Assembly (NCBI GenBank): GCA_030059665.1
Contig: JANVYR010000002.1
Location: 161,261 to 185,260, forward strand
Direction: 5' to 3'
From: Candidatus Calditenuis fumarioli
GTDB lineage: Archaea; Thermoproteota; Nitrososphaeria_A; Caldarchaeales; Calditenuaceae
Length of the DNA stretch: 24,000 nt
Shown: positions 3,001-17,073 of the stretch, piece by piece
Numbering within the stretch: the stretch's first letter is position 1
Layout of the letters: the number at the start of each line of letters is the position of its first letter
Notes under the pieces: generated by a model
Database searches by the model: none
The model's input: the letters and a program-made list of their open reading frames with translations, nothing else
What the model was told of the DNA's origin: nothing
Translations under genes and position numbers: made by a program

Positions 3001-6000
3001 TGAAGCTCTTGATGGTGCCGTCGGACTTCGTGTACCACCTAGCGTACTTGAGCTGTCCATATCTGTACGACAGCGGGTCTGTGGAGGTTCCGGGCACGCC
3101 AGTGGCGTTGTTGGCGTCGAAGGCGAAGTCGCTGGACGGCATCAGGTAAATGTACCTCTCGGTGACCGTCATGTTCAGCCCGAAGACGTCACGGAGTATC
3201 AGCTTGGCGGGCCACGGAGGCACCTGCACGAAGATCTGATGTGTGGCAGAATCGTGGCAGTTACTGCCTACGCTTCTTACGCATCGGAACGTGATGTTGA
3301 TCCTGTCCCACTTGATTTCCTTAAACCTCTGCGGGCTATCTGGATCGGCGACCCTCTTGGTCTCCCACTCCCACCAGAACGTGTAGGTCGTGTTGGTGGT
3401 CCTTTTATCAGACTTCACGGTAGTTATAGTTCTGTTGACGGGACCTCCGGACATCGCGGATATGTCAATCCTCGATGTGACGTTCAGGTTGACGATCCAG
3501 GCCTCTATCAGCGCGTTCTCTAGCGGCGCACCTCCCTTGTCGATGGCCCTCGGCTTAATGAAAGCAACCGGCAGCGGAGCCCTCAGCGTATCCTTGTCGT
3601 AGATGATAATCTTGTAGCCGAATGCGTCCTGCAGCTTCACCCACTTGCTGTAGAACGTCTGCTGCTTGTGGAGATCAGCGTTGGGCTGGAGCGTGAAGTT
3701 CAATGCAGGCCATACCTTGTTGGGCAGCGCCGATTTGTTGTAGAACTTGTCGACGACGAAGCTCATGTTGGTCGTCAGCCTGACGTCCTGAAGCCTGTAG
3801 CTGCCGTTCCACCAGAGGTAGGAGTAGTCCTGCGGACCTGGCCTCGTGTTGTCTCCGTATAGGATCGTCTTGTACTCGAGCGATCCGGTCCACTTGGAGA
3901 AGTTCCCGAGACCGAGCGTCATGGAGACGAAGTTGTCGTTGATGATGTCGAACCTGACGTCGCCGATCCGCAGATCGCCGTCGATCATGTCCAGGAACCA
4001 GTGGAGGGCCCAGGTGTTCAGGTTGACCTCTAACCTGTCGCAAACGGTGAACCTCAGGTCCCTGTTGAACTCCCTCAGGACGACCCTCGTATCAGCCTTC
4101 TCATGGACCTCCTGCGGCAGCATGGACTCGGATCCGGGCATCCAGTGGATGTACGACTCGTACGTCCTGTTACCGGACTCACCTGGCCAGAAGCCGTAAC
4201 CAGGCGACGCGTCTCTGTAGTTGTATCCTCCTAATGTTCTCGGCGCCACCGTCGTCACGGTGATGTTGTATATCGCAGGCGGCATCTGGTAGAAGATGTA
4301 CTCGTTGGTGGCGTTCTTGTGCTGTATGACGTAGCTGAAGAACTGGGCAACCCTGACGCTGGTGTTCCACCTCTGGAAGTCGAAAATGTTGCCCTGGCCG
4401 GCGGGCACCACGCCGAGCCTCTCCGCCAGAGATCCGTCACGGATGGCGTAAGGCCACGGATCCATCGTCTCCAGGAAGTACCAGGGCTTCCTCGCCGGGT
4501 CGCTGATGTTGTATCCCACCCACGACACCGTGACGTTCAGCCTCGGTATCGCAACGGTTCCCTGGAAGTCGAAGGTCTTGAAGACGAAGTCGGTGATCAG
4601 GGCCCTGACCTTGATCGGTGCGTGGAAGTCGCCCTCGACCGGTATCGAGACCTTGCCGTCCTGCGCTGCAATCCTTGTGTTATCAGGGAGTATCGCCTCG
4701 AGGAACGGGACGTCAACTCCCTTCCAGTAGAGCCTCGTGAACGTCAGGGTACCTCCGGTAACGATGAAGTCCTTAGCTCCGTCGGTTCCCGTGTTGAACC
4801 TCACCTCGGAGTTGGTGGCGGGGTCGATCATCCAAGCAGGCGTCTGGGAGAGCGGCCTGTCCTGGCAGTCGACGAAGAGGACCTTCAGCTTGAAGACGCT
4901 AACTGTCTTGTCGACGAAGACTGTCCTGACCAGCTTGTTGATCTCGCCGGAGTTCTCGTAGATAGTTACACCAGCGTACTGGACCCTTATGCCGTACATC
5001 AGGTCCTCTGGGACCTGGAAGGCGACCCAGACGTACTCAGGCGCCGGAGATCCGAGGAGCGCGACGGAGATGTTCAGCCTCCAGAGGAATGGCCACGATA
5101 CCGGTCCAACCTGCTCGTAGGCGTACTTTCCATCGATGGGCGACGGCGATACCAGCCTGTATGCCTTCAGCTCAACCGGGCCTCCGGTCTCCCTTAGCAG
5201 CCAGATCCTCACGTCGCTCGGGTTCAGGACGTTGCCCTCGTTGTCCCTTACCGTTATCACGATGTCGCTGACGTTGGCGACGAGGAGGAGCTTGCCGTCA
5301 AGATCGAATGTTAAGGTCCCAAATATCGGGTCAACTACAGACCCCGTGTTGTTCTCAACCCTCCCTACCAGAGGACCTCCTCCGCTCGATGTACCCAGCC
5401 TGACCAGTCTCGGAGCTGATGTCCTGGAACCGCTGTAGATCTCCGGATAAATTGGTGTTGGACCCGAAGTCCACGGATCGGGCCATTCAGATGCACTCTT
5501 GAGCGCCACCAGGTACGGGTTCCTCAGGAAGAAGACTCCGACCGTCTGAGATGCTCCTCCGTAGCTGTCCATGAACCCTCCGGAGTACTGGATCTCTATC
5601 CTGAGACCGTTGTACGGGCCTGGATCATCGGATATGCTCCTCGTCTTCAGGTAATCGTTCACCGCGACCTTCGTGGGATCGTTGGCAGTGAGGTCAGCGG
5701 TTCCGGAATAGTACCTGGAAGTGTAAGTCTCGTCCCTCGCGAACCTCCCCTCTTGGAAGACCTTGATGTTTCCGAATTTGCCCACCAGGTACATCCACAT
5801 CGTGGCGTTCGGAACCCTCAGGTACGTCCTGAACTGCGGTAGGGATCCTGGCCATGCGTGACCGTTGGCCGTCAGGGCGAATCCGTCACCCGGAATTCCG
5901 AACGGCTCCTCAGTAGTTCCCACCTGGTTCTGGAGGTAGTATGCGTTGCCGTCCTTGTCCCTGAGGTTGAACTTGCATGTTGCCAGGAAGAGCGAGGAGT

Positions 6001-7426
6001 TGAAGGTGCTGATTCTCCATCCAAAGTTCCTGGGGTCGTAGACGGTGCCGTTAACCATCAGGTCGTCGTCCCTGACGCCGCACCTCCAGTAGAAGACGGT
6101 GGAGTTGAGGAATATCGCCAGCGGGATCGAGTGACCGCCGCTAACGTAAGGCTGTGTGGTGTAGTTGTAGTTGAGGTTGAAGGCCTCGAGGAGCTGCGGG
6201 ACGACATCAGAATAGAAGCCACCGGTCGGAATACCGTCCCTGAGAGCAGGTGGTGTTGCAGTAACAAGGTGCGAGTTGTCGAGCGTCGAGAAACCATCGG
6301 TATCCCTGTTCGCGAAGAACGTCGTGTTCACCAGTACCGTCTCCCACCAGACCCTGACAGTTACGTTGAGGTGCGCCTGCAGGTTAACTGAAGGATAGAA
6401 GTCATCGCGATAAGGCCTCTTCAATCCGAGGTGTATCGCCTCAAGCGGTATCGGTACCAGCTCGTTGGTCTTGTATCGAGTCCCGTAAACCGGGTACATC
6501 TCGTTGGTGGTCCTCGGATCGTACAGACCGTATCCTGATCCGTCGCCCTTGGTGACGAAGGCCCTTATCAAAGACGCTCCTCCTGTGGTTATGTTCATCT
6601 CGTAGATCTTGACCTGGGCGTAGCTCAGGTTGTCCTTCGTGCTGTACCAAGTGTGGACGTGGAATGGTGTGAAGACCACGGATGCGTTGGCAACCCAAGC
6701 GTTCCTTGCGTACCTTGTAGAGCCTAATACGTACTCAGACTGGGTGCCAAAGGCCGTCGAGAAGTTCGCCGGCGACATGGCGACGAAGTCAACAGGTCCA
6801 GCTCTACCACCGGTGTTGGACATCAGGCTGGGACCGTAGTTCGAGGTCCAAGGCAACCACACCGCTACCACGGTCCCGTTCATCAGGACGGTCGCGTTGG
6901 TCCTCCAATGCCCCTGACCAATCTTACTTTGGATGTATCTGGTCGATGCGTTGATCACCATCATGTACACGATTATTCCGCTGTATAGGCTCCCGGCACC
7001 GACCTCGGTACCGTCGTAGCTCTTCGCCTTAACAACCACAGTCACGTTCGACCATGTATCGGGCCACTCAATCCTCACGAACCCGGTCGCGTTGATATCG
7101 AACTTGCGAGGATAGAAAATGGCGTCGTTTAACGGAGCACCCCTCTCGTGGTAGACCTCTACGAAGTACCAGTTATCCGTCAGGTTGTACCTGTCCGCGA
7201 AGCCAGTATAGGAACCATCAGGGCACGCCCTCATCCGATGCGCGGCCGGGAGTGTCGTAGCACCGCTGCATTCTACTCCGTTCCAGCTCGGCGTCACTAT
7301 CTTCAGCCATGCCGAGTACGTCCCCTCCGCTTGGACAGACGGTATCACGTACAGGGCCGCCGGTATCGCCAGCAGCACGGCCAGCAGCGCCACGATTCCG
7401 ACCCTTGCCAGACCACGGTTGTCCAA
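14..7426 (-). CDS. Giant (2470 aa) secreted surface protein with C-terminal membrane anchor; probably N-glycosylated, S-layer/adhesin-like, with a stalk of carboxypeptidase-regulatory-like beta-sandwich modules
   Basis: Uninterrupted 7.4-kb ORF. TTG start at 7426 with GGTGA (7436-7440) 9 nt upstream. N-terminal signal peptide MDNRGLARVGIVALLAVLLAIPAALYVIPSVQA/EG. C-terminal hydrophobic span IPMSLATLLALAIGIILLVIVLAIIISEY followed by a basic, Pro-rich tail. About 45 N-x-S/T sequons by hand count. Repeated modules of the type VxxxDxxGxPLxGAxV...Y.V (e.g. LTVRVVGELGQGLQGASVQLL...ASYEVRATYKGF) are concentrated in the last ~600 aa. Confidence 0.85.
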   Translation of the reverse strand: MDNRGLARVGIVALLAVLLAIPAALYVIPSVQAEGTYSAWLKIVTPSWNGVECSGATTLPAAHRMRACPDGSYTGFADRYNLTDNWYFVEVYHERGAPLNDAIFYPRKFDINATGFVRIEWPDTWSNVTVVVKAKSYDGTEVGAGSLYSGIIVYMMVINASTRYIQSKIGQGHWRTNATVLMNGTVVAVWLPWTSNYGPSLMSNTGGRAGPVDFVAMSPANFSTAFGTQSEYVLGSTRYARNAWVANASVVFTPFHVHTWYSTKDNLSYAQVKIYEMNITTGGASLIRAFVTKGDGSGYGLYDPRTTNEMYPVYGTRYKTNELVPIPLEAIHLGLKRPYRDDFYPSVNLQAHLNVTVRVWWETVLVNTTFFANRDTDGFSTLDNSHLVTATPPALRDGIPTGGFYSDVVPQLLEAFNLNYNYTTQPYVSGGHSIPLAIFLNSTVFYWRCGVRDDDLMVNGTVYDPRNFGWRISTFNSSLFLATCKFNLRDKDGNAYYLQNQVGTTEEPFGIPGDGFALTANGHAWPGSLPQFRTYLRVPNATMWMYLVGKFGNIKVFQEGRFARDETYTSRYYSGTADLTANDPTKVAVNDYLKTRSISDDPGPYNGLRIEIQYSGGFMDSYGGASQTVGVFFLRNPYLVALKSASEWPDPWTSGPTPIYPEIYSGSRTSAPRLVRLGTSSGGGPLVGRVENNTGSVVDPIFGTLTFDLDGKLLLVANVSDIVITVRDNEGNVLNPSDVRIWLLRETGGPVELKAYRLVSPSPIDGKYAYEQVGPVSWPFLWRLNISVALLGSPAPEYVWVAFQVPEDLMYGIRVQYAGVTIYENSGEINKLVRTVFVDKTVSVFKLKVLFVDCQDRPLSQTPAWMIDPATNSEVRFNTGTDGAKDFIVTGGTLTFTRLYWKGVDVPFLEAILPDNTRIAAQDGKVSIPVEGDFHAPIKVRALITDFVFKTFDFQGTVAIPRLNVTVSWVGYNISDPARKPWYFLETMDPWPYAIRDGSLAERLGVVPAGQGNIFDFQRWNTSVRVAQFFSYVIQHKNATNEYIFYQMPPAIYNITVTTVAPRTLGGYNYRDASPGYGFWPGESGNRTYESYIHWMPGSESMLPQEVHEKADTRVVLREFNRDLRFTVCDRLEVNLNTWALHWFLDMIDGDLRIGDVRFDIINDNFVSMTLGLGNFSKWTGSLEYKTILYGDNTRPGPQDYSYLWWNGSYRLQDVRLTTNMSFVVDKFYNKSALPNKVWPALNFTLQPNADLHKQQTFYSKWVKLQDAFGYKIIIYDKDTLRAPLPVAFIKPRAIDKGGAPLENALIEAWIVNLNVTSRIDISAMSGGPVNRTITTVKSDKRTTNTTYTFWWEWETKRVADPDSPQRFKEIKWDRINITFRCVRSVGSNCHDSATHQIFVQVPPWPAKLILRDVFGLNMTVTERYIYLMPSSDFAFDANNATGVPGTSTDPLSYRYGQLKYARWYTKSDGTIKSFTISGYEGLLLLPTSGFLNETYGIESGIGHNVGILPTGGVDRTHAISLANTKEEFHYQFNVVWKSAVVYSENYVLDKGPVKEFGASEVYDVRFMFTLSNSTDPAHAVHNLNLWIYYPNVTTWWDQSLWSSWPPAPQDYEACEDSAFPCEKRVTLISSTDADGIVDFSKIPGPRFMNTTWKYVFSANHSDVTWLNDLVATQFVLNNETFGDGPLKTVTTSRVTVPIMLNAARQLSVVLLTWRDEQGVPTAYPVQGYTVRLQARKLGTSVDTGVLSGVSDAYGFVTFDSDPTNVRKIFWAGLTVRYRVEPPAYVNEPDDAKWKTWMQGLNVQLVEQTYNTPTRRSSFAYFPDEEPTHWAITTISTWFDPDGFCVGLCTYYDKDQARTISKPFVITVNYAAVTVRAIDFNGRPLAGAFVELVDRASGRIAGWSYTANNSWTARPIDLQTLYMYHRGKLLDPRPIGGAGYTAIMNLTFGTWNYDANNDDTVDNSGVRDPLRLIIRVYWLATDPNPNNANGNLWPIWPFRDETAPLPRHVKVYDSDFDETDAAAKTLEVPHSEAAIGLKLPDRVVSASDPVSRGVHRDVTTAVFDFKALLNYGGKTLPPDILRRFEVFVYKKTGATTELSLRFTEGVGMSRGTFTINRLPRGVYELEVRFGDAGTIFKRTFDISTVNVGTVQVEASMPFTDLSFEVTDLRGRPLSIAPGDVSITPEAYYFRREVAGNVITITALYTGAPVTFSVKYTSPTYGTSVQVTLTDTADGIRTRLLGGRTLQMPVDDVVINAVDAQGRPVGGAVVTFGRAQPKTTGPDGKAVFERVPLGTEDSPITYTVRVSVEGVEVYARDEPISVARKEISVLAQLFALTVRVVGELGQGLQGASVQLLRAGTTVGTASADAAGSARFEKLAPASYEVRATYKGFTGSASVTLDQLRRGDVVEIRLPVYVEVLGIPMSLATLLALAIGIILLVIVLAIIISEYRWWRGRRLGVYAPPPPKTPAK

Positions 7427-7636: not shown

Positions 7637-8144
7637 TCACTGGTCACGTGCGCCCCCCATCCCGAGCCCCCTCGCGACCTCCTCGACCAGCCTCCTCACC
7701 TCGCCCAGCGCGTCCTCCACGTCCTCCCTCGTAGCCAGGCCTTCGTAGGAGTTAACGTGCATCGAGCTCGCCAGCTTGAACGCTGTCCTGACCCAGCTCC
7801 AGGGCCACCTCGTTCTTGTGGGCCCAGAGATCGGCGTGCGACTCCAGCCTAAGACCCTTCCTCGCCATAGCGTGAGCCCTCACCGCCAGCGCGCAGGCCC
7901 CCCAGACCTTCTCTCCCGTCTGCCTCAGGTCTCCCCTGCTGAGCTCCTCCGCCGCCCGCTCAAGCAGCTGCCGGGCACCCTCGAGGTACTTCCTCCAGGC
8001 CTCGCGCGGGTCCTCATCTTTCGTCAGCAGCTCGAACACGAACTCCTCGACCGTCTGTCCAGCCCTCCTCGCCCTCTCCCTGAGCTCGTCGACCACCACC
8101 CTGGGCAGGGCCAAGGCCGTCGCTTCGGGCGCTTCTCCCGCCAC
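7637..8144 (-). pseudogene. PaREP1-family protein gene (four-helix, HEPN-like) interrupted by a single-nucleotide frameshift
   Basis: Frame A (8144-7752) reads LPRVVVDELRERARRAGQTVEEFVFELL...YLEGARQLLERAAEELSRGDLRQTGEKVWGACALAVRAHAMARKGLRLESHADLW, then stops after ELGQDSVQAGELDAR. The +1 frame continues without a stop as AFKLASSMHVNSYEGLATREDVEDALGEVRRLVEEVARGL to TGA at 7637-7639. That matches the C-terminal A..(L/M)H.N(F/S)YEG motif I remember for PaREP1. Total length is 508 nt (3n+1). Confidence 0.6.
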
Positions 8145-8245: not shown

Positions 8246-8941
8246 TCAGACCCTCGTGTATATCTCGACTCCCAGCTCCATAGCAGTCTTCACGGCGTTG
8301 TCGGTAGCGAACGGCGTCACGAAGATCAGCCTGTCGGGTCTCTTCCCGGTCTTCCGCTCGTAGAGCTTCGCCTTCCTGTACAGGGTGACGACGTCTGAGG
8401 GCCTCACCTGGGACGATACCTCGATCAGCAGCGTCTTCCCGTCCTTCACCGCGACGTCGACCTCCACTGGGCTCGGGAACCCGAAGACCTCTCCTCCCTC
8501 ATCGAACGCCGTCCACCTCTCGACCTTCAGGCCCAGCTCCTTCTCGAGGATTCCCTTCAGTCCCTCCCTGAACGCTTCCTCGGACATCAGACCCCACCTG
8601 GCTCCCAAAGCCGAGATCTGCCTGTTGACCGCTTCGAACCCCTTGTTCATGTCCTCCCTGAGTCTGTTCATGTCCTCCCGTAGCTTTGCAATCTCCTTGT
8701 CATGCCTCTCGAACCCCCTGATCATGTCCTCCCTAAGCCTGTTCATGTCTTCCCTGAGCCTCGCAATTTCCTGCTCGTGTCTGTCAAGCCTCTTCAGGAT
8801 CTCGATTATGTGGGATTCGTGCCTGTCGAGTCTCTTCAGGATCTCGTCCAACCCAATTAATCCTGCAACTGCGTACCTGAACTCCTCGTCCTCCCTGAGC
8901 AGCTTCAGGATCCTCGACTTCAGCCTCTCCCTCGCGGCCAA
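8246..8941 (-). CDS. Paralogue A (231 aa): conserved N-terminal domain + heptad coiled coil + C-terminal PD-(D/E)XK-like domain; uncharacterised
   Basis: TTG start at 8941 with a TATA-like box about 26 nt upstream. N-terminus is EEFRYAVAGLIGLDEILKRLDRHESHIIEILKRLDRHE. The centre has REDMNRL heptads. The C-terminus reads FGFPSPVEVDVAVKDGKTLLIEVSSQV...RLIFVTPFATDNAVKTAMELGVEIY, a restriction-endonuclease-like D...E-x-S pattern. It resembles what I remember as DUF3782 plus DUF1626/PDDEXK_10; not verified. Confidence 0.8.
   Translation of the reverse strand: MAARERLKSRILKLLREDEEFRYAVAGLIGLDEILKRLDRHESHIIEILKRLDRHEQEIARLREDMNRLREDMIRGFERHDKEIAKLREDMNRLREDMNKGFEAVNRQISALGARWGLMSEEAFREGLKGILEKELGLKVERWTAFDEGGEVFGFPSPVEVDVAVKDGKTLLIEVSSQVRPSDVVTLYRKAKLYERKTGKRPDRLIFVTPFATDNAVKTAMELGVEIYTRV
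8634..8783. repeat. Intragenic tandem duplication, 2 x 75 bp (about 80 percent identical), with a nested 21-bp heptad repeat
   Basis: TCGAACC recurs at 8634 and 8709 and the following 68 nt align with ~16 mismatches. The units encode EIAKLREDMNRLREDMNKGFE and EIARLREDMNRLREDMIRGFE. GTTCATGTCCTCC repeats at a 21-bp period inside each unit. Confidence 0.8.
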
Positions 8942-8965
8942 CCCGTCACTACCTTCGTCGATTCG

Positions 8966-8973
8966 AGATATAA
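8966..8973 (-). promoter_or_regulatory. TATA-like box (minus-strand GTTATATC) for paralogue A
   Basis: 25-32 nt upstream of TTG 8941. The same motif sits at the same spacing upstream of paralogue B (13638-13645), followed in both by GAAGGnAGTGACGGnTTG. Suggests a leaderless or near-leaderless mRNA. Confidence 0.4.
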
Positions 8974-9170
8974 CTGAGTAGGTGCACCGTCGATCCTTGA
9001 TGGGCCAAAGCCCACCGCGCCCCGCACGTGAGCCGTCTCTCCCGCCGATCGGGGCATCGCAGCCCTCCGCTGTCTGCGGTGTGCAGCAAGCACCCCGTTG
9101 GGAAGGTGGACCCAGCTCGCATAGAACCGCGTGCGAACGTTCTTAACGCGGACGAAACCTCTCCGAGCCG

Positions 9171-9650
9171 ATGAGCCTGAAGCCGCTCATCAGGAAGGCG
9201 AACGAGCAGGACCTCAACGCCATCGTCAACCTCCTCGTCCGGAACAAGCGCCTGAACGAGGAGTTCGACCCGATGCTCACCGTCACCGATCAGATCGAAG
9301 AAGTAGCACGGGAGTACGTCTCCGAGGCCCTGAAGGACCGGAACTCGCTGGTACTCGTCTGCGAGGAGGGGGGGAAGGTGGTGGGCTTCCTGAAGGCCGA
9401 CGTCATCGACCGGCTCTTCTACGAGCCCCGGAAGGAGGGGGTCATCAGGGAGTTCTACCTCCTCCCCGAGTTCAGGAGGCGCGGGATCGGCAGGATCATG
9501 GTGGAGAGGGCCTACGAGGAGCTGAGGTCCATGGGAGCGGGGATCATAACCGCGGAGTTCCCATCGCAGCACAAGATAGCCGTCTCGTTCTACGAGAACC
9601 TCGGCTTCCGGCCGATCATCAGCAAGTACGCTAAGGAGGTCACCAGGTGA
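9171..9650 (+). CDS. GNAT-family N-acetyltransferase (159 aa)
   Basis: ATG start. Acetyl-CoA binding motif A is LLPEFRRRGIGRIMVERAYEEL, with a C-terminal FYENLGF. Size is typical. The antisense ORF 8949-9572 has a low-complexity P/L/E/D composition. Confidence 0.85.
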   Translation: MSLKPLIRKANEQDLNAIVNLLVRNKRLNEEFDPMLTVTDQIEEVAREYVSEALKDRNSLVLVCEEGGKVVGFLKADVIDRLFYEPRKEGVIREFYLLPEFRRRGIGRIMVERAYEELRSMGAGIITAEFPSQHKIAVSFYENLGFRPIISKYAKEVTR

Positions 9651-9659
9651 GTTCCCCTC

Positions 9660-10850
9660 TCAGGGCCTCTCGCCCAGCACCACCTCGACGTTCACGGCTT
9701 TGCCGTCCCTGATCACCGTCAGCACCACCCTGTCCCCGGGAGAGGTGTTCTCCACCAGGTAGGTCAGGAGGTCGTCCAGCGAGGAGATGCTGTGCCCATC
9801 TATCGCCACTATAACGTCACCTCCTATCAGGTATGTCTCGCCCGCAACGGTCACCCTGGTCGTCCCTCCCCTCAGGCCGGCCCTGCTGGCCGGGCTGTTG
9901 TTGGCCACCGTCTCCACCAAGAAGCCGGACTTGACCGGTATCCCGGCCCTCTCGGCCACCAGCGAGTTCAGCTCCTTCCCCGAGATCCCGATGTAGCTGT
10001 GGGAGTACCTGCCCTTCTCGATCAGCACCGGCACGACCCTTGCCACTATCGAGGAGGGTATCGCGTACCCCACGCCCGAGAAGGTGCCCGTCGTCGTCTC
10101 GATCGCCGTCGTCACCCCCACCACCTCTCCCCTGTAATTCAGCAGGGGACCGCCCGAGTTGCCCGGGTTTATCGCAGCGTCTATCTGGATCACCCACGGT
10201 ATCAGGTAGCCCCTGTTGGAGGGTAGGAGCCTGCCCTTCTGGCTGACGATCCCCACCGTCACGGAACCTTGGAGGCCGAAGGGGTTTCCGATCGCGACAA
10301 CGGGGTCGCCGATCCTGAGGGCCCTCGAGTCGCCGAGTGGGAGCGGTTTCAGCTGCAGGTCGCTCGGCGGCCTGATCCTGAGGACCGCGAGGTCCGTGTC
10401 CACGTCGTAGCCCACGAGGGTGGCCTGGAGCATCGTCCCGTCGAGGAAGCTGACGTAGATCTGATCGCCCCCGGAGACCACGTGGTAGTTGGTGACTATG
10501 TGCCCCCTGCTGTCGTACACGAACCCAGTACCGACCGCCGAAGTGATCGTCCCTATCACCCTCACCATCACCACCGAGTCCTTCGCCCGCTCGTAGATCT
10601 CGGAGACGTTCAGCGGCTCATTCAGAGGCCTCTCAACGACAGTCGTCTGCCGCGTCACCGTGACGGTGCTGACCTGCGCGAGCTGGGCCTGCGCGGATCC
10701 GAGGGCCTGAACCTGCTGGGCGACCTGCGCGATCCGCGAGTTGACCCCTTCGAGCTCCCCGCTCAGCGAGTCCAGCTCGACCACCAGAAGCCCCACGAGG
10801 AGGAGCGCCAGAACGCTGAGGACCACAGCCACCTTCCCGGCGCTGGCCAT
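9660..10850 (-). CDS. htrA: HtrA/DegP-family (S1C) serine protease with N-terminal membrane anchor and C-terminal PDZ domain (396 aa)
   Basis: Catalytic triad contexts TNYHVV (His), DTDLAVLRI (Asp) and GNSGGPLL (Ser). N-terminal hydrophobic segment VAVVLSVLALLLVGLLVV. PDZ-like SGFLVETVANNSPASRAGLRGG...GDVIVAIDGHSISSLDDL. ATG start at 10850. Confidence 0.9.
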   Translation of the reverse strand: MASAGKVAVVLSVLALLLVGLLVVELDSLSGELEGVNSRIAQVAQQVQALGSAQAQLAQVSTVTVTRQTTVVERPLNEPLNVSEIYERAKDSVVMVRVIGTITSAVGTGFVYDSRGHIVTNYHVVSGGDQIYVSFLDGTMLQATLVGYDVDTDLAVLRIRPPSDLQLKPLPLGDSRALRIGDPVVAIGNPFGLQGSVTVGIVSQKGRLLPSNRGYLIPWVIQIDAAINPGNSGGPLLNYRGEVVGVTTAIETTTGTFSGVGYAIPSSIVARVVPVLIEKGRYSHSYIGISGKELNSLVAERAGIPVKSGFLVETVANNSPASRAGLRGGTTRVTVAGETYLIGGDVIVAIDGHSISSLDDLLTYLVENTSPGDRVVLTVIRDGKAVNVEVVLGERP

Positions 10851-10907
10851 CCCGCTCCCCCACGGCCGCCGGGTCCTATTACGCGTTGTGGACGAAGCGT
10901 CCGCGCC

Positions 10908-11135
10908 TCACTCGACCGGGGCCTTCGAGAAGATCACCAGCTCGTCGTCCCTCAGCTCCACCCAGACCTCGTGCCCCAGCCCGAGGAGCGTCCTGAAGAC
11001 CCTCTCCCACGGGAACCTGACCGGGTCCTTCACCCGCACCTCGAACCCGCCCATCACGGTGGTGCACTCGCCGTACCCGTTGATCGCAGACCTGAGCTCG
11101 CCCTCGATGTCCACGCAGGCCCGCTCCGAGCCCAA
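10908..11135 (-). CDS. Hypothetical small protein (75 aa), no family recognised
   Basis: Fills the only gap in the minus-strand gene run. Balanced, non-repetitive composition (FPWERVFRTLLGLGHEVWVELRDDELVIFSK) with GC3-rich codons like its neighbours. TTG start lies about 28-38 nt downstream of an AATTTTTATGA box. No homology recognised. Confidence 0.45.
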   Translation of the reverse strand: MGSERACVDIEGELRSAINGYGECTTVMGGFEVRVKDPVRFPWERVFRTLLGLGHEVWVELRDDELVIFSKAPVE

Positions 11136-11162
11136 GGCCCCCGTCCGTCCCCGGAGGCTTGC

Positions 11163-11173
11163 TCATAAAAATT
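11163..11173 (-). promoter_or_regulatory. A/T-rich element (minus-strand AATTTTTATGA): candidate TATA box for the 75-aa ORF and/or oligo-T terminator of the aminotransferase gene
   Basis: The only A/T-rich patch between 11136 and 11213. It lies 41 nt after the upstream stop and about 30 nt before TTG 11135. Confidence 0.3.
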
Positions 11174-11213
11174 GTGACGCGGTTCCGGCCGGTGCTGTGG
11201 CCCGTCTGAACGC

Positions 11214-12545
11214 TCAGCGTCGTACCTTCGAGATCTCGGCAAGCGACTGCTCGAGCAGGTCGAGCCCGCGCTCCAAGAGCTCCCTCTCGATGGTCAGTGG
11301 AGGGTGAAGCCTGACGACGTTCCCGAAGAGGCCTCCCTTCAGCAACAGCAGGCCCCTCGACCTGGCCTCGGCGACCAGCCTGTCGGTCTCCTCCGTCGCC
11401 GGCTCCTTGCTCCTCCTGTCCCGGACGAGCTCCAGAGCGCGCATCGCACCCATCCCCCTCACGTCGCCCACGATCTCGTACCTCTCCGAGATCTCCAACA
11501 ACCTCCTCTCCATGATCCTGCCCAGCTCAACCGCCCTCTCGAGGACGCCGCCGCTCGTCATCACCTCGAGCACCTCCGAGGCCACCGCCGCGGCCACCGG
11601 GTTTCCCCCGAACGTCGTCCCGAGGCCCATCGGGTGCACCGCGTCCATCAGCTCAGCCCTCCCCACCGTCGCCGAGAGCGGCAAACCGTTGGCTATCGCC
11701 TTACCCAGCGCGAAGAGGTCGGCCGTCACGCCGAAGTTCTCCAGCGCGAAGAGCCTCCCCGTCCTGCCGAAGGCGGTCTGCACCTCGTCCGCGATCAGCA
11801 AGACGTCGTTCTCCCGGAGGAACCCCCTCAGCTCCCGCACGTAGTCCGCCGGCGGCACCACGAACCCTCCCTCGCCCTGTATCGGCTCGAAGAGGACGGC
11901 CGCGACGGAGCTCGGCGGTGCCACCGTTCTCATCACCCACCTCCTCAGGTAGTCGAGGCATGACAGCCCGCAATCCGGGTAGCTCTGTCCGAACGGGCAC
12001 CTGTAGCAGTACGGGTAGGGCGCGTGGTGGACCCCCGGTGCGAACGGTTCGAGGCCCGCCTTGTACGGGTGGTACTTCCCGGTGGCGGTTAGGGCGAGGT
12101 ATGTCCTGCCGTGGAAGGAGTTCTCGAAGGCGATCACGCCCTGTCTCCTCGTCGCCAGCCTCGCTACCTTCACCGCGTTCTCCACCGCCTCGGCTCCGCT
12201 GTTGAAGAGCGCCGCCTTGTTCTCCGACCCGGTCGGGGCCAGCTCCGAGAGTTTCCTCGCCACCACGAGGTAGGGCTCGTACGCAGCCACCGCGAAGCAG
12301 ATGTGCCAGAGCCTCCTCAGCTGCCGCTCCGCCGCCGCGATCAGCCGCTCGTTGCAGTGGCCTAGGTTGGCCACCCCTATCCCGCTGGTGAAGTCGATCA
12401 GCTCCCTGCCGTCGACCGTCCTGAGGAGCGCGTTCCTCCCCTCGGAGATCACTATTGGATGGAGCGTCGAGATGCCCCTCCCCACGAAGCGCTGCCTCAA
12501 CTCCAGAAGGGAAGTCTCGTCCAAGCCGTGTCCCCCAAGCACCAA
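11214..12545 (-). CDS. Class-III PLP-dependent aminotransferase (4-aminobutyrate / acetylornithine aminotransferase family, 443 aa)
   Basis: Motifs FTSGIGVANLGH, FNSGAEAVENAVKVAR, SFHGRT, LLIADEVQTAFGRTG, the PLP-lysine context LFALGKAIANG, and TFGGNP. The start is uncertain: TTG 12545, GTG 12542 or TTG 12524. A GAATAAC TATA-like box lies only about 16 nt upstream of 12545. Confidence 0.9.
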   Translation of the reverse strand: MVLGGHGLDETSLLELRQRFVGRGISTLHPIVISEGRNALLRTVDGRELIDFTSGIGVANLGHCNERLIAAAERQLRRLWHICFAVAAYEPYLVVARKLSELAPTGSENKAALFNSGAEAVENAVKVARLATRRQGVIAFENSFHGRTYLALTATGKYHPYKAGLEPFAPGVHHAPYPYCYRCPFGQSYPDCGLSCLDYLRRWVMRTVAPPSSVAAVLFEPIQGEGGFVVPPADYVRELRGFLRENDVLLIADEVQTAFGRTGRLFALENFGVTADLFALGKAIANGLPLSATVGRAELMDAVHPMGLGTTFGGNPVAAAVASEVLEVMTSGGVLERAVELGRIMERRLLEISERYEIVGDVRGMGAMRALELVRDRRSKEPATEETDRLVAEARSRGLLLLKGGLFGNVVRLHPPLTIERELLERGLDLLEQSLAEISKVRR

Positions 12546-12613
12546 TCGCCGAGGCTGTTATTCTCTGTTGGCCGTGTCGCCGGAAAGCGGTTCGGATTGC
12601 GGTTCTGGGCATG

Positions 12614-12624
12614 AAGTTTTTTGA
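12614..12624 (+). promoter_or_regulatory. Putative TATA-like box (AAGTTTTTTGA) for the tRNA gene
   Basis: T-rich element centred about 30 nt upstream of tRNA position 1 (12650), in otherwise GC-rich sequence. Confidence 0.35.
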
Positions 12625-12689
12625 GAGGTCAGCCGAGAATACCGATCGGGCGGGGGTAGCCAAGCCAGGTCAACGGCGCCGGCCTCAAG

Positions 12690-12705
12690 ATCCGCGCGAG
12701 GCGAA
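12690..12705 (+). other. tRNA intron 1, 16 nt, at the canonical 37/38 position (boundary ambiguous by 1 nt)
   Basis: 16 nt (ATCCGCGCGAGGCGAA) separate the anticodon loop from the 3' half of a perfect 5-bp anticodon stem. I could not draw a canonical bulge-helix-bulge here: the 32-35 helix has two mismatches, so the motif may be relaxed. Confidence 0.6.
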
Positions 12706-12719
12706 AGCCGGTCCCGCAG

Positions 12720-12737
12720 GCCAGACATCGGGCGGAA
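12720..12737 (+). other. tRNA intron 2, 18 nt, non-canonical position inside the variable arm
   Basis: A clean hBHBh' motif can be drawn. The central 4-bp helix is CCGC (12714-12717) with GCGG (12732-12735). The 3-nt bulges are AGG (12718-12720) and AAG (12736-12738). Flanking helices are C12721-C12722 with G12730-G12731, and T12712-C12713 with G12739-G12740. Cutting after the second bulge nucleotide gives the variable arm TCCCGCAG/GGGTTC. Confidence 0.65.
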
Positions 12738-12949
12738 GGGTTCGTGGGTTCGAATCCCACCCCCCGCACTTAGAGAACTTCGCTATGTGTCCCATCGACG
12801 GGGTCAACGACCGCACGGAAACCTCGCAGGATAAGCCGCGCAGAGCCCGAAAGTCCCAGGATAGGGAGCGGTGATCCGAGAGAGGGAGTTGAGAGCTAAT
12901 GCGGAGTGAAGGATCCGGGTTCAGGATCGAGTGGGTTGCACAGGTGCGG

Positions 12950-13612
12950 CTACGCCCTCGTGTATATCTCGACTCCGAGCTCCATAGCGGTCTTCACGGC
13001 GTTGTCGGTAGCGAACGGCGTCACGAAGATCAGCCTGTCGGGTCTCCTCCCGGTCTTCCGCTCGTAGAGCTTCGCCTTCCTGTACAGGGTGACGACGTCT
13101 GAGGGCCTCACCTGGGACGATACCTCGATCAGCAGCGTCTTCCCGTCCTTCACCGCGACGTCGACCTCCACTGGGCTCGGGAACCCGAAGACCTCTCCTC
13201 CCTCATCGAACGCCGTCCACCTCTCGACCTTCAGGCCCAGCTCCTTCTCGAGGATTCCCTTCAGTCCCTCCCTGAAGGCTTCCTCGGACATGAGGCCCCA
13301 CCTGGCTCCCAAAGCCGAGATCTGCCTGTTGACCGCTTCGAACCCCTTCATCATGTCCTCCCTGAGCCTGTTCATGTCCTCCCGTAGCTTCTCTATTTCC
13401 TGCCATATCCTCCCGATCTCCTGCTCTATCCTCAGGAACCTCTCCTCGTGTCTGTCCAGCCTCTTCAGGATCTCGATTATGTGGGATTCGTGCCTGTCGA
13501 GTCTCTTCAGGATCTCGTCGAGTCCTATCAGTCCTGCAACAGCATATCTGAACTCCTCATCCTCCCTGAGCAGCTTCAGGATCCTCGACTTCAGCCTCTC
13601 CCTCGCGGCCAA
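12950..13612 (-). CDS. Paralogue B (220 aa): same family as paralogue A, with a different central coiled-coil cassette
   Basis: Protein matches paralogue A except for the central segment, K->R, N->M and the last residue. I place the start at TTG 13610-13612. This is the position homologous to the paralogue A start and has the same upstream GTTATATC box. The 308-aa form in the ORF track (to 13876) adds an unconserved, non-protein-like extension that overlaps the glyA start. Confidence 0.8.
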   Translation of the reverse strand: MAARERLKSRILKLLREDEEFRYAVAGLIGLDEILKRLDRHESHIIEILKRLDRHEERFLRIEQEIGRIWQEIEKLREDMNRLREDMMKGFEAVNRQISALGARWGLMSEEAFREGLKGILEKELGLKVERWTAFDEGGEVFGFPSPVEVDVAVKDGKTLLIEVSSQVRPSDVVTLYRKAKLYERKTGRRPDRLIFVTPFATDNAVKTAMELGVEIYTRA

Positions 13613-13637
13613 TCCGTCACTGCCTTCGCAACTATCG

Positions 13638-13645
13638 GATATAAC
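13638..13645 (-). promoter_or_regulatory. TATA-like box (minus-strand GTTATATC) for paralogue B
   Basis: Same motif and spacing (about 26 nt to TTG 13612) as upstream of paralogue A. Confidence 0.4.
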
Positions 13646-13874
13646 CCAACCTTCCCAATCAGCCAGTAGGCGGTGAAGCTGGGCGACGAGATCACCGCTC
13701 TCAGCGAGAACGCGCGGACCAACGGCCTTTCTGCCCAAGAAGTGAGTTCCAGCAGCTGCAAAGCGCGTTCCGGGCAGTGGACCTGCGGCCTCCTGACAGC
13801 CGGAAACGAGGGTGGACGGCGATCCGGGGGCCCTCAACGATATCAGGCAGACCTTACGGAGGTTAGCTGCAGGC

Positions 13875-15212
13875 ATGGACGCGGAGCGGAGGTTCGTCAG
13901 GGCCGAGGAGGCCTTCAGGAAGGTTCTGCGATGGATGAGGGAGCACCACGAGTTCTTCGCGAGCTCTATACCGCTGATCGCGAGCGAGAACGTCCCGAGC
14001 CCTGCGGTGAGGGAGGCGCTGGCGAGCGACCTGGGAAACAGGTACGCTGAGGGCTATCCGGGGGAGAGGCTCTACGCCGGATGCAGGTGGATAGACTCTA
14101 TCGAGATGCTCGGCATCGAGCTAGCGAAGGAGGTCTTCAACGCGGAGTACGCCGACCTCAGGCCAATCTCTGGGGTTATGGCGAACCTCGCGGCGTACAC
14201 GGCCTTCGCCGAGCCGGGAGACGTGATGGTCGCTCTGGCAGTCCCCCACGGCGGCCACATCAGCCACGGCAAGCGGGAGTGGGGAGGTACCGCGGGCACG
14301 GTCAGGGGCCTGAGGGTCGAGCGGTACGAGTTCGACTACGACCGGTTCAACATCGACGTCGACGGAACGAGGCGGAGGCTCGAGCGTCTCGAGAAGGAGG
14401 AGGGGAAGAGACCGAAGGTCTTCATGCTCGGTGCCAGCGTCTTCCTCTTCCCTCATCCCGTCAGGGAGGTCTCGGACCTGGCCAAGGAGTACGGCGCGAG
14501 GGTCGTCTACGACGCGGCCCACGTCGCCGGCCTGATCGCCGGCGGCGTCTTCCAGGACCCTCTGAGGGAGGGGGCAGACGCGGTGACGATGAGCACGCAC
14601 AAGACGCTCGCGGGACCGCAGCACGGCCTGCTCCTCAGCTGGGAGAGGTACGCGGAGGACTTCAAGCGCGTCATGTTCCCCGGCCTCCACAGCAACCACC
14701 ACCTCCACGCGGTTGCAGGCGTCACGATAGCGCTGGCCGAGGCCCTCGCGTTCTACCACGAATACGCCAGGAGGATCGTCGAGAACTCGAAGGCCCTAGC
14801 TGGGTTCCTGATGGAGGAGGGGCTGGACGTCCTCTACGGGGACCTCGGCTTCACCGAGTCGCACCAGGTCCTCGTCGACGTCAGCAGGCTCATGGGAGGT
14901 AAGGAGGCGGAGTTCCTCCTGGAGCGGGCGGGCATCGTCGTGAACAGGAACCTCCTTCCGAAGGACTACCTCCTCAAGACCGACTACAGGAACCCGAGCG
15001 GGATAAGGCTGGGGACGCAGGAGGTCACGAGGCTCGGCATGGGCAAGGAGGAGATGAGGGAGATAGCGCGCTTCATCTCGAGAGTTCTGGTCAAGCGGGA
15101 GGACCCGGAGAAGGTCAGGAGGGAGGTTGCCGAGTTCAGGCGTCCCTTCCAGAAGGTGCACTACGCCTTCTCCAACGCCACCGAGGCCTACGCGTACGTC
15201 TCCATCACCTGA
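13875..15212 (+). CDS. glyA: Serine hydroxymethyltransferase
   Basis: Motifs LIASENVPSPAV, NRYAEGYPGERLYAGC and the PLP-lysine context VTMSTHKTLAGPQHG. I prefer ATG 13875, with GGAGGT at 13858-13863 (11 nt upstream), over the GTG at 13812 in the ORF track. Confidence 0.9.
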   Translation: MDAERRFVRAEEAFRKVLRWMREHHEFFASSIPLIASENVPSPAVREALASDLGNRYAEGYPGERLYAGCRWIDSIEMLGIELAKEVFNAEYADLRPISGVMANLAAYTAFAEPGDVMVALAVPHGGHISHGKREWGGTAGTVRGLRVERYEFDYDRFNIDVDGTRRRLERLEKEEGKRPKVFMLGASVFLFPHPVREVSDLAKEYGARVVYDAAHVAGLIAGGVFQDPLREGADAVTMSTHKTLAGPQHGLLLSWERYAEDFKRVMFPGLHSNHHLHAVAGVTIALAEALAFYHEYARRIVENSKALAGFLMEEGLDVLYGDLGFTESHQVLVDVSRLMGGKEAEFLLERAGIVVNRNLLPKDYLLKTDYRNPSGIRLGTQEVTRLGMGKEEMREIARFISRVLVKREDPEKVRREVAEFRRPFQKVHYAFSNATEAYAYVSIT

Positions 15213-15246
15213 CCTCGCCCGCGCCTGGGCCCATCGGGTGCTCGGG

Positions 15247-15930
15247 ATGGGAGGGAGGATCGCCGGCGTCGTCTTCGACCTCTTCGGCACGCTCGTCCCC
15301 CGTTATCCGATCGACAGGCACAGGAAGGTCCTGGCCGAGATCGCAGCTCTCCTCGGGGTCGATCCGGTGCGGTTCACAGAGGTCTGGATAAGCAGGCTCG
15401 AGCGCAGGATAACGGGCTTCTGCAGGGACGCTGAGGAGTGCATACTGGACACGCTCGAGGCGATGGGTGCGAGTGCTGACCGAGAGGCGCTTGCCCGGGC
15501 CGCTGCCATCAGGTACGAGTTCATGAGGAGCTGCGTCGTCCCGTACCCGGAGGTCGAGGAAGGGATCAGGGCACTGAAGGGGATGGGATACAAGCTGGGG
15601 CTCATCTCCAACTCCTCGCCGGAGGTCCCGGAGCTCTGGAGGTCGCTGAGCCTGTCGAGGTACTTCGACGTCGCCACGTTCTCCTGTGAGGTCAGGACCA
15701 GAAAGCCCCACCGGGAGATCTACCTGATGACCTGCAGTGCCCTCGGCCTCAGCCCAGAGCTGTGCCTCTACGTCGGAGACGGGTCCGAGAACGAGCTTGA
15801 GGGCGCGAGGGAGGTCGGGATGTTTCCCGTCATGATAGTCCGCGACGGGCCGCTCAGGGACTGGGACGGCCCCGTGGTCCGGGACGTGATGGGCGTCGTG
15901 GAGCTGCTGAAGTCGATGTCGGATTGCTGA
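15247..15930 (+). CDS. HAD-superfamily hydrolase, subfamily IA-like (227 aa)
   Basis: Motif I VVFDLFGTLV, motif II LGLISNSS, motif III RKPHREIY, motif IV YVGDGSENELEGA. ATG 15247 lies after the glyA stop (15210-15212). The longer ORF-track form from 15127 is P/S/T/R-rich and overlaps glyA. Confidence 0.8.
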   Translation: MGGRIAGVVFDLFGTLVPRYPIDRHRKVLAEIAALLGVDPVRFTEVWISRLERRITGFCRDAEECILDTLEAMGASADREALARAAAIRYEFMRSCVVPYPEVEEGIRALKGMGYKLGLISNSSPEVPELWRSLSLSRYFDVATFSCEVRTRKPHREIYLMTCSALGLSPELCLYVGDGSENELEGAREVGMFPVMIVRDGPLRDWDGPVVRDVMGVVELLKSMSDC

Positions 15931-16002
15931 GCGTAAACCCTGTATTCTATAAGAGGTGGGGAGAACAGAAAAAGCGAGCGGTGATGGTTCAGGGCAGACA
16001 GA

Positions 16003-17073
16003 TCAGATGTCCTTCATGAAGTCCTCGAGGTAGTCGAGGTCTCCGTCCGCTCCAGAGCCTCGGATCTCCGCGGGCTGCTGCACCTCATGCGGTCTCTGTG
16101 GTATCCTGAACATCGGTCCCGTGCTGCCCTGCGAGTAGCTGCCACCGCTCATGATGATCGAGACGTGCAGCGTCGACCCGTACCGCCTGTCAACCCTCGC
16201 CCCCCAGATCACGAGACCCTCCTCGCCCATCAGCTCCGAGACGATCTCCGCAGGCCTCGTGGCCTCCTTCAGCTTCATGTCCTCTCCTCCGCCGACGTGG
16301 ACGATGGCCGCGCTGATCCCCTCGATCGTCCCCTCCAGCAGCGGCGACTGGAGCGCGTTGAAGGTCGCCTCCTCCGCCCTGTTCGGGGAGCTGCTCTTGC
16401 CGAGGCCTATCGTGGCGATCCTCCCCCTGCTCACCACCGTCTTGAAGTCCTCGAAGTCGATGTTGATCAGGCTCGGCCGCACCAGCGACTCCGTGATGCT
16501 CACGACCATGTTGTTGATCACCTCGTCGGCCAGCGAGAAGGCGGTGTTCAGGTCGTACTGCGGGTAGAGCTCGAGGAGCCTGTTGTTGTCTATGACCACC
16601 ACCGTGTTGCAGTACCGCTGTAGCTCCTCAAGCCCCCTCATCGCTATCCTCCTCCTCACGGCCCCCTCGAACCTGAACGGCAGCGTCACCACGCCCACGA
16701 CTATCAGCCCCTGCTCCTGCGCCAGTTTGGCCACGAACGGGGCCGCTCCGGTCCCGGTCCCTCCGCCGAGCCCCGCAGCGATGAAGACAAGGTCGGCGTC
16801 CTCCAGCGCTTTCCTCAGGTCCTCCGCGGACTCCTCAGCCGCCATCCTGCCGAGCTCCGGGTTTCCGCCGGTTCCGTGGTTCCTCGTGACGGTTGGTCCG
16901 AGCAGAAGCTTCTCGTGGGCCTTGATGAAGCTGAGGTGCTGGAGGTCCGTGTTCATCGCGATGGCGTAGATGTCAGGTACGTTGGCCTCGATCAGCCGGT
17001 GGACCGTGTTGGATCCGGCTCCGCCCACGCCGATGACCTTTATCCTGATGCTGCTGTTCTGGAGCTCACTCAA
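16003..17073 (-). CDS. ftsZ: Cell division GTPase FtsZ (356 aa)
   Basis: [23 protein letters not shown], tubulin signature [29 protein letters not shown], and acidic C-terminal tail [12 protein letters not shown]. The only in-frame start codon upstream of the essential G-box strand is TTG 17071-17073. Confidence 0.92.

Follow-up and report, generated by a model that had tools for sequence, protein, structure and literature searches.

A mosaic gene of the DUF3782/PDDEXK_10 family and probable recombination among its paralogs in the thermophilic archaeon Candidatus Calditenuis fumarioli

In a 24,000-nucleotide (nt) stretch of DNA from the uncultivated thermophilic archaeon Candidatus Calditenuis fumarioli (hereafter the window; positions 161,261 to 185,260 of contig JANVYR010000002.1), two genes of the DUF3782 + PDDEXK_10 family, copies A and B, form direct repeats 4.7 kb apart and bracket a block of about 4 kb with tRNA-Leu, aminotransferase, HtrA and GNAT genes. 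Copy A is a mosaic, the 5′ part of which follows a third paralog, X, and the 3′ part of which follows B. The explanation favored here, taken as a whole, is that A, B and X are old paralogs, that gene conversion among them produced the mosaic A, and that recombination between the repeats deletes the block; we regard it as likely. Three or more paralogs in the same orientation (B by the SHMT gene, A by PaREP1 and a giant surface-protein gene, X by a zinc dehydrogenase gene) would undergo repeated non-reciprocal homologous recombination that overwrites parts of their coding sequence, with purifying selection keeping every copy intact. The present A would be a patchwork of an X head and stalk and a B nuclease domain, with the switch at the domain boundary, and crossing-over between A and B would delete the tRNA-Leu/aminotransferase/HtrA/GNAT block and leave a B-head/A-tail hybrid. 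The underlying process is presumably homologous recombination, with or without crossing-over, between identical stretches of 230-380 nt.

The window belongs to a metagenome-assembled genome (MAG; GCA_030059665.1) from a Hawai'i fumarole library, in which its source contig spans 575,520 bp; the MAG was assembled from short reads by metaSPAdes with k up to 77 (PMC10547907), and every sequence compared here is a short-read metagenome assembly. Comparisons within the species used loci L001-L014 and L095-L106, the backbone of which is 99.1-99.97% identical to the window where shared. A scan of genome contigs returned no locus of C. fumarioli (best match 63% identical) and served for outgroups and family-wide context only. 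The two copies and the segments discussed below are as follows.

8246-8941, minus strand: copy A, 231 amino acids (aa), TTG start, MDJ0274656.1; Pfam DUF3782 (1.4e-25) and PDDEXK_10 (5.5e-20); 100% match to P0001.
12950-13612, minus strand: copy B, 220 aa, TTG start, MDJ0274661.1; recognized by Pfam and by alignment to A.
8344-8572, identical to 13048-13276, minus strand: 229-nt tract in the nuclease core, read as a recent A-B conversion tract.
8558-8572, minus strand (open reading frame [ORF] nt 370-384, aa 124-128): mosaic breakpoint in A at the stalk/nuclease boundary; X-type on the 5′ side, B-type on the 3′ side.
8634-8783, minus strand: stalk segment of A with a tandem pair of LREDMxxGFERHD-type repeats, each of 75 nt (25 aa), from repeat-family and homolog alignment.
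8849-8888, minus strand (ORF nt 54-93): silent patch with 10 A-B differences, where A is identical to X.
8967-8974, minus strand: TATA-like GTTATATC upstream of A, 26-33 nt before the TTG start.
13638-13645, minus strand: TATA-like GTTATATC upstream of B, 26-33 nt before the TTG start.

Aligned over their ORFs, A and B differ by 47 substitutions in 663 aligned nt (92.9% identity) and by a 33-nt indel in the stalk. The differences are clustered: about 40 of them fall in the 5′ half of the gene, and when the 47 were permuted, none of 20000 permutations gave an identical run of at least 229 nt, so that chance is excluded as the origin of the pattern. An initial annotation made from the window's letters alone had placed the two minus-strand copies correctly, had given the 229-bp identity exactly, and had rightly counted the silent changes it quoted, six for GLIGLD and three for FRYAVAG. 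It had also called the copies near-identical and their 5′ part as conserved as the 3′ part, with about a dozen substitutions, which the alignment contradicts. The protein differences that it listed (K->R, N->M and a C-terminal V->A) are present, and it did not report a whole diverged stalk segment (QEIARLREDMNRLREDMIRGFERHDKEIA in A, ERFLRIEQEIGRIWQEIE in B) or the indel. The 33-nt length difference falls in the stalk-repeat region of A (8634-8783), where B carries a single repeat of the LREDMxxGFERHD type (13338-13412) and a diverged unit. The B protein was found unchanged on 14 contigs from other assemblies.

The uneven distribution is accounted for by paralog X (260 aa, MDJ0274507.1), which lies on the source contig 149 genes away from A. 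It was placed and oriented relative to A by accession order, and its sequence was taken from other assemblies (L002, L095-L104). Accessions run NT5C (505), a 280-aa ORF (506), X (507), ADH (508) and TRM (509) at X, and PaREP1 (655), A (656) and GNAT (657) at A; from this order of neighbors, X, A and B all have the same orientation. Copy A differs from X at a single position in ORF nt 1-384 and at 94 positions over the remaining ~306 nt, and from B at 40 positions plus the 33-nt indel in nt 1-369 and at 7 positions in nt 370-696. Among 137 informative sites, A agrees with X and not B at 43 and with B and not X at 94; a single breakpoint fits 133 of the 137, leaving 4 misplaced, and the probability of a perfect 43/94 split is ~1e-36. 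Copy A, X-type over nt 1-384 and B-type over nt 370-691, has no private sites, each of its nucleotides being present in X or B. The number of silent substitutions per silent site (dS) is 0 between the heads of A and X, 0.335 between the heads of A and B, 0.039 between the tails of A and B, and 1.59 between the tails of A and X, the X tail being ~69% identical. The silent patches between A and B exist because A follows X there, not B.

Alternation of perfect blocks and silent patches is therefore a three-way patchwork under purifying selection. The ratio of replacement to silent substitution rates (dN/dS, omega) is 0.03-0.2, far from an even spread of changes with a ratio near 1, and 11 of 11 A-B head differences are silent at the protein level, in agreement with the selection initially proposed. 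Gene conversion, proposed at the same time, is upheld by the mosaic, although two copies are not enough to produce it and X is needed as a third partner. The alternative of a recent segmental duplication of gene and promoter, diverging by point mutation only and with no gene conversion, can point to A-B tails that are 98-99% identical, but is already contradicted by this three-sequence partition: within this one gene pair the heads show ~9 times the silent divergence of the tails, and A matches a third locus over 384 nt.

A mosaic of this kind, or the two-copy structure itself, might instead be an assembly artefact, such as a chimeric contig or a wrongly resolved repeat. The metaSPAdes k of up to 77 is shorter than the shared stretches of 229 and 384 nt, and public assemblies of the species often break or join oddly at these genes. 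Against this, 8 independent assemblies agree on the B join, and the A join with its mosaic junction recurs in L014 and L012, which come from other projects. Moreover, the X-type nt 369 and the B-type nt 385 of A are separated by 16 nt, well under any k used, so the A junction is not a k=77 graph artefact. An assembly error is thus a very unlikely source of the structure.

Copy X itself varies in the population, with stalk-length alleles of 231 aa (L002 1720-2415) and 260 aa (L095 6001-6783), the latter longer by 87 nt of repeat units. In head and stalk, the shorter allele is identical to the window's copy A; it switches to X-type sequence within a 32-nt window.

Similarity between A and B fades quickly outside the ORFs. 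Upstream identity is patchy, with 8/8 in the TATA-like box, 14/16 nt before the start codon and ~52% over 58 nt; downstream it is 60% over 30 nt. Flanking DNA has thus not been homogenized. The two octamers are putative promoters, judged by sequence and position, and the earlier description of the repeat unit as exactly gene plus promoter is accurate for the shared GTTATATC box but not for the upstream DNA as a whole. The shared octamer and the 14/16 nt before the start codon are what a recent duplication of gene and promoter would also leave, but the fall in identity to ~50% only tens of nt outside the ORF counts against one. The longest ORF at copy B is a 308-aa frame (12950-13876, minus strand) with an ATG at 13876, which crosses the divergent promoter region into the SHMT start. 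This frame is an over-extension; the true start is the TTG at 13612, because homology and other gene calls place it there. Database entry P0128 (262 aa) shows a similar over-extension.

A recent origin of the pair is further disfavored by the sister species Calditenuaceae archaeon OTU-1, the one genome used as outgroup (loci L020 and L038). At L020 the order is copy, tRNA, aminotransferase, HtrA and GNAT, with block proteins 80-86% identical to those of the window; no second copy follows GNAT, and the neighborhood differs from that of C. fumarioli. At L038, a 368-aa copy stands directly upstream of the homologous giant gene. Positions equivalent to those of both A and B thus recur in OTU-1, as had been suggested for checking in related genomes, which makes both positions older than the split between the two species. 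At 98% identity, the A and B tails are nonetheless much closer to each other than to their giant-linked and tRNA-linked OTU-1 counterparts (only 76% and 68%, respectively), and A, B and X share 100% of their first 40 aa, against 75-85% identity to the OTU-1 copies. Copy B retains the stalk motif ERFxRIExEIxRIWQEI of its positional counterpart, the tRNA-linked copy. Judged against this one outgroup genome, A and B are old paralogs in concerted evolution and not products of a fresh duplication. The likeliest history is one in which an A-type tail replaced the tail of B and the A head was exchanged with X. With flanks ~50% identical and counterparts of both loci in a sister species, the mosaic recent duplication offered in the initial annotation finds no support, and a duplication followed by point mutation only is extremely unlikely.

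Two features of the OTU-1 loci deserve mention in their own right. In L020, the interval 12808-16546, which follows GNAT and occupies A's place, holds four ORFs without Pfam match save a weak sub-threshold Phage_portal, and may derive from a virus once integrated at the block's variable edge. In L038 (1-2803), the giant-linked copy is preceded by a 132-aa ORF, PIN-like by eye, and by a further partial family copy, so family members cluster there too.

The bracketed block was correctly described at the outset as a GNAT-HtrA-aminotransferase-tRNA-Leu segment, as Pfam, Rfam and ARAGORN confirm. It contains only a tRNA, an aminotransferase, a 75-aa ORF, HtrA and GNAT, four of which are placed as follows:

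9171-9650, plus strand: GNAT acetyltransferase (Pfam), divergent from copy A; the exact protein occurs in 35 blocks of the collection.
9660-10850, minus strand: HtrA-like serine protease with PDZ (Pfam Trypsin_2, PDZ_2).
11214-12545, minus strand: class-III aminotransferase (Pfam Aminotran_3, 1.5e-119).
12650-12769, plus strand: tRNA-Leu(CAA) with a 25-nt intron, at the first position of the block; Rfam RF00005 (42.5 bits) and ARAGORN with introns allowed.

Default ARAGORN settings missed the tRNA because of its intron. This tRNA gene is intact and is not part of the repeat. No integrase, transposase, att-like site, terminal repeats, tRNA-target duplication or replication/mobility genes were found in the block. 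A transposon or integrative element was rejected as its nature, given this lack of mobility genes and a repeat that ends at the ORF and a short promoter region.

Direct repeats of this kind had been predicted to mediate loss of the intervening DNA, and at the contig level such a structure does exist. In L001, L105 and L106, from three samples, the order is SHMT, one 220-aa B-head/A-tail hybrid, PaREP1 and the giant gene, and the 4.7 kb are absent. In sequence terms, this is the product predicted for crossing-over between direct repeats. Each hybrid crosses over within a window of its own (L001, nt 370-476; L105, nt 670-691; L106, nt 283-295). To compare the joins across assemblies, upstream flanks were labeled U1 (SHMT), U2 (GNAT) and U3 (ADH), and downstream flanks D1 (tRNA + block), D2 (PaREP1 + giant gene) and D3 (280-aa ORF + NT5C).

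U1-B-D1, window order: 8 assemblies.
U2-A-D2, window order: the window, L014 and partly L012.
U3-X-D3, window order: 8 assemblies and L002.
U1-D2, block absent: L001, L105, L106.
U2-D3, GNAT side to NT5C side: L005 8989-9771 and L006 8989-9771, hybrid family gene.
U3-D2, ADH side to PaREP1: L004 10001-10696, hybrid family gene.
U3-D1, ADH side to tRNA: L003 10001-10696, hybrid family gene.

The U1-D2 contigs would represent real genomes, on the argument that two of the crossover windows are far shorter than any k; the invariance of the standard B allele in 14 other contigs and the k127/k141 names of L001 and L105, of a form that MEGAHIT writes, are counted in the same direction. Several points weigh against this. 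All data are short-read metagenome assemblies and U1-D2 is known at the contig level, many assemblies break inside the copies, and in 20 of the 35 blocks with the exact GNAT the longest contig reaches only 2-5 kb. The ends of several contigs fall inside the repeat, with starts at window 8801-8837 or a terminus at 13276, where the perfect block stops. Other unusual joins (U2-D3, U3-D2 and U3-D1), probably mis-assemblies in deposited genomes, also occur at these paralogs, so that the U1-D2 joins could be mis-joins as well, and if the A tail was further converted by B in those strains, long shared stretches would make mis-joins possible. The reciprocal product (a GNAT-copy-tRNA circle or tandem junction) was not found among the assemblies compared. 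In the accession series of the MAG that holds L106, FtsZ, taken as a control, is absent along with the block genes. On balance, a real deletion polymorphism, seen at the contig level in short-read assemblies, is somewhat more probable than an artefactual one. The U2-D3 and U3-D2 joins, on the other hand, are probably mis-joins, because with all three paralogs in direct orientation ~145 genes, including those for fibrillarin, Nop5 and topoisomerase VI A, would be lost or split off; a chromosome split is the less likely reading of them.

The block-free contigs could also be ancestral, with the block and one copy forming an inserted cassette that entered the arrangement SHMT-copy-PaREP1 as circular DNA by Campbell-type integration. 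Such an integration would yield exactly two hybrid direct repeats, block-free contigs are present in three samples, and the copy-tRNA-aminotransferase-HtrA-GNAT unit stands in a different neighborhood in the sister species. However, the block is without integrase, att-like site, replication or mobility gene, and three block-free contigs with three crossover points fit recurrent deletion better than one shared ancestral site. Furthermore, the motif ERFxRIExEIxRIWQEI, which matches the unit-linked sister copy, is in B, where integration predicts it in A. An inserted cassette is accordingly judged unlikely, and deletion by crossing-over between A and B is the preferred reading of the block-free contigs.

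The proteins themselves invite another explanation. Both copies are members of the DUF3782 + PDDEXK_10 family, formerly DUF1626/COG5493, with Pfam scores for PDDEXK_10 / DUF3782 of 71.5 / 89.6 bits (A) and 72.1 / 88.9 bits (B) against cut-offs of 21.2 / 24.4. In both, a coiled-coil stalk joins a conserved head to a nuclease core resembling NucS/EndoMS. Across 30 aligned homologs the head motif (L..LL.EDEEFRYAVAGL.GL) is invariant, as are E121, D162, E174 and S177, and K190 is nearly so; the copy number of the LREDMxxGFERHD stalk units varies widely among the same homologs. Of the active-site motifs, I (E) and II (D) are present, and III is E-V-S in these proteins, with a serine at position 176 where some homologs have the lysine of E-V-K; a conserved basic helix follows it, as described for the family. 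An AlphaFold model has a single helix over residues 19-136 and a predicted local distance difference test score (pLDDT) of ~90 over residues 140-228; its top fold matches in the PDB are EndoMS/NucS (5gkj and 2vld) and AF1548, with a Foldseek E of 2.7e-4 for the C-terminal domain vs NucS/EndoMS. Searches by sequence gave coiled-coil noise only in the PDB and sub-threshold coiled-coil matches only in NCBIfam. From their conserved catalytic residues, the A, B and X proteins are putative active nucleases.

Nuclease activity might drive the exchanges, if cuts in or near family members set off conversion, rearrangement and the shuffling of domains. In favor of this, no copy has lost its catalytic acidic residues, breakpoints cluster at the domain boundary, many different hybrid alleles occur in the population, and the gene adjoins a PaREP1 conflict-type gene and a fast-evolving surface-protein gene. 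Nevertheless, ordinary homologous recombination between identical stretches of 230-380 nt explains everything seen, and nothing requires the encoded nucleases for the exchanges. No target site or inverted repeat points to nuclease-driven exchange, and the breakpoint may mark only where X, ~69% identical in the tail, is too divergent to recombine. We assign exchange driven by the nucleases a very low probability. Hardly less doubtful is its extension to a self-shuffling cassette system, in which the nucleases, perhaps together with PaREP1, would provoke breaks and let heads, stalks and tails recombine at the domain boundary. If such a system did operate, it would generate new variants of a conflict or defence protein beside a fast-evolving S-layer gene, with recurrent rearrangements as a by-product, e.g., loss of the 4.7-kb block or chromosome splitting at X and A.

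The gene next to copy A that enters these considerations is listed here:

7752-8144, minus strand: PaREP1 (HEPN-T family), 101 nt 3′ of copy A; Pfam PaREP1 1.3e-10, profile positions 2-80 of 115.

PaREP1/8 (HEPN-T) genes are known from operons with genes of the DUF1626 restriction-endonuclease fold (PMC3710099). Copy A likewise has PaREP1 on the same strand 101 nt downstream, but the arrangement differs from those operons in that it involves A only, the PaREP1 allele of the window is frameshifted and no MNT gene is present. PaREP1 is adjacent to and co-oriented with copy A and not with B or X, and across the family, adjacency was seen in 2 of 80 loci at the sensitivity used. The frameshift results from loss of one unit of a GGAGCTGG tandem repeat (8 bp, ~7794-7801; vs L014) and leaves 130 aa. 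Five other recorded alleles in the 90% cluster, that of L014 included, have 171 aa and keep a C-terminal part with histidine (SMHVNFYEG). Beyond PaREP1, a 2470-aa ORF occupies window 14-7426 (minus strand). Its N-terminus is signal-like, a membrane anchor lies at its C-terminus, and the protein probably corresponds to MDJ0274653.1, which a 2026 preprint lists as a PySLP-like colossal S-layer protein of C. fumarioli. From strain to strain this giant gene is only 80-95% identical at the nt level, as against the 99.1-99.97% of the backbone to the right of copy A, which makes copy A the point where the variable region begins.

Concerted evolution of dispersed paralogs by gene conversion has a classical example in tufA/tufB of enteric bacteria. 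As in that type, separate loci here are near-identical over part of their length, have diverged flanks and evolve under purifying selection. Unlike it, three partners are involved, segments are homogenized with different partners, and the breakpoint lies at a domain boundary. A second parallel is found in Haloferax volcanii, where recombination between the near-identical sod1 and sod2 split the chromosome in a laboratory strain, as established by physical mapping (PMC6063281). There too, near-identical paralogs and not mobile elements were the substrate for rearrangement of an archaeal chromosome; the present case differs in that the structure is seen in metagenome contigs and that the better-supported event is a 4.7-kb deletion, not a chromosome split.

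The family, too, has a history. DUF1626/COG5493 was predicted in 2007 to have a PD-(D/E)XK fold behind an N-terminal coiled coil and to be kin to NucS (DUF91) and Hjc/Hje, the link to the NucS family DUF91 being first made by profile comparison; a motif III variant, E-x-S/T with a relocated lysine, was described in the same work (PMC1913061). The stalk was later discussed as an alpha/beta coiled coil (PMC4786415). Copies A and B share with this family (PF07788 PDDEXK_10 + PF12644 DUF3782) the domains, the stalk, the motif variant and the multicopy habit, and nothing disqualifies them from it (PMC1913061, PMC4786415). NucS/EndoMS (5gkj, 2vld) is the best structural match to their C-terminal domain; however, identity is only 18-20%, its N-terminal DNA-binding domain and PCNA-binding tail are absent here, and a coiled-coil stalk stands in their place, so A and B are not members of NucS/EndoMS. 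More than 2300 homologs are known, mainly from thermophilic archaea and often in several copies per genome. The literature found on the family holds no demonstrated function or biochemistry for any member, and exchange of head and stalk between paralogs is not reported in the literature found by a limited search under the family's Pfam names.

Since both the family and the phenomenon are known, the present case is of value for how clearly the mosaic shows, for natural variants in which the block has likely been deleted and for the warning it gives about mis-joined public contigs. In this uncultivated thermophilic archaeon, a few dispersed paralogs provide a clean natural case of homologous recombination, with two effects: a multi-domain gene is remodeled as a stalk is swapped onto another nuclease domain, and structural variation probably arises between strains. 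The case also indicates that these paralogs break or mislead short-read Calditenuis assemblies, so that mis-joins may be present in several of the public MAG contigs that surround them. It further brings into view a widespread and uncharacterized family of coiled-coil nucleases, here beside PaREP1 and a putative colossal S-layer gene.

A full-length profile match was also obtained in PADLOC, to C3a181 (PDLC01085, E 3e-28). C3a181 is a candidate type III CRISPR accessory cluster with Tpen_1359 as representative and 25.55 in its score column (PMC6546367). Its assignment as a 'diadenylate cyclase' was rejected as weak and mislabeled, with a mismatch in fold and no cas gene seen in the window or flanks; likewise, no cas families lie next to A, B or X in any locus compared.

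A more distant relative of the two copies is encoded further along the window:

20025-20735, minus strand: third, divergent relative, 236 aa, sharing the N-terminal head motif and stalk; hhalign probability 98.3, head only.

The head of this gene reads EFRYxVAGxxGLxEILKRLD and has ~70% nt identity to that of A, which led to its rejection as a conversion partner. Pfam gave no match to the protein, the tail going unrecognized. Its structural model (pLDDT 84.6) has EndoMS as top fold match and, together with invariant E155, P157, G161, E162 and T164, suggests that the tail is another PD-(D/E)XK-like domain. The family of this gene comprises more than 1600 proteins, among which the stalk is variable in length.

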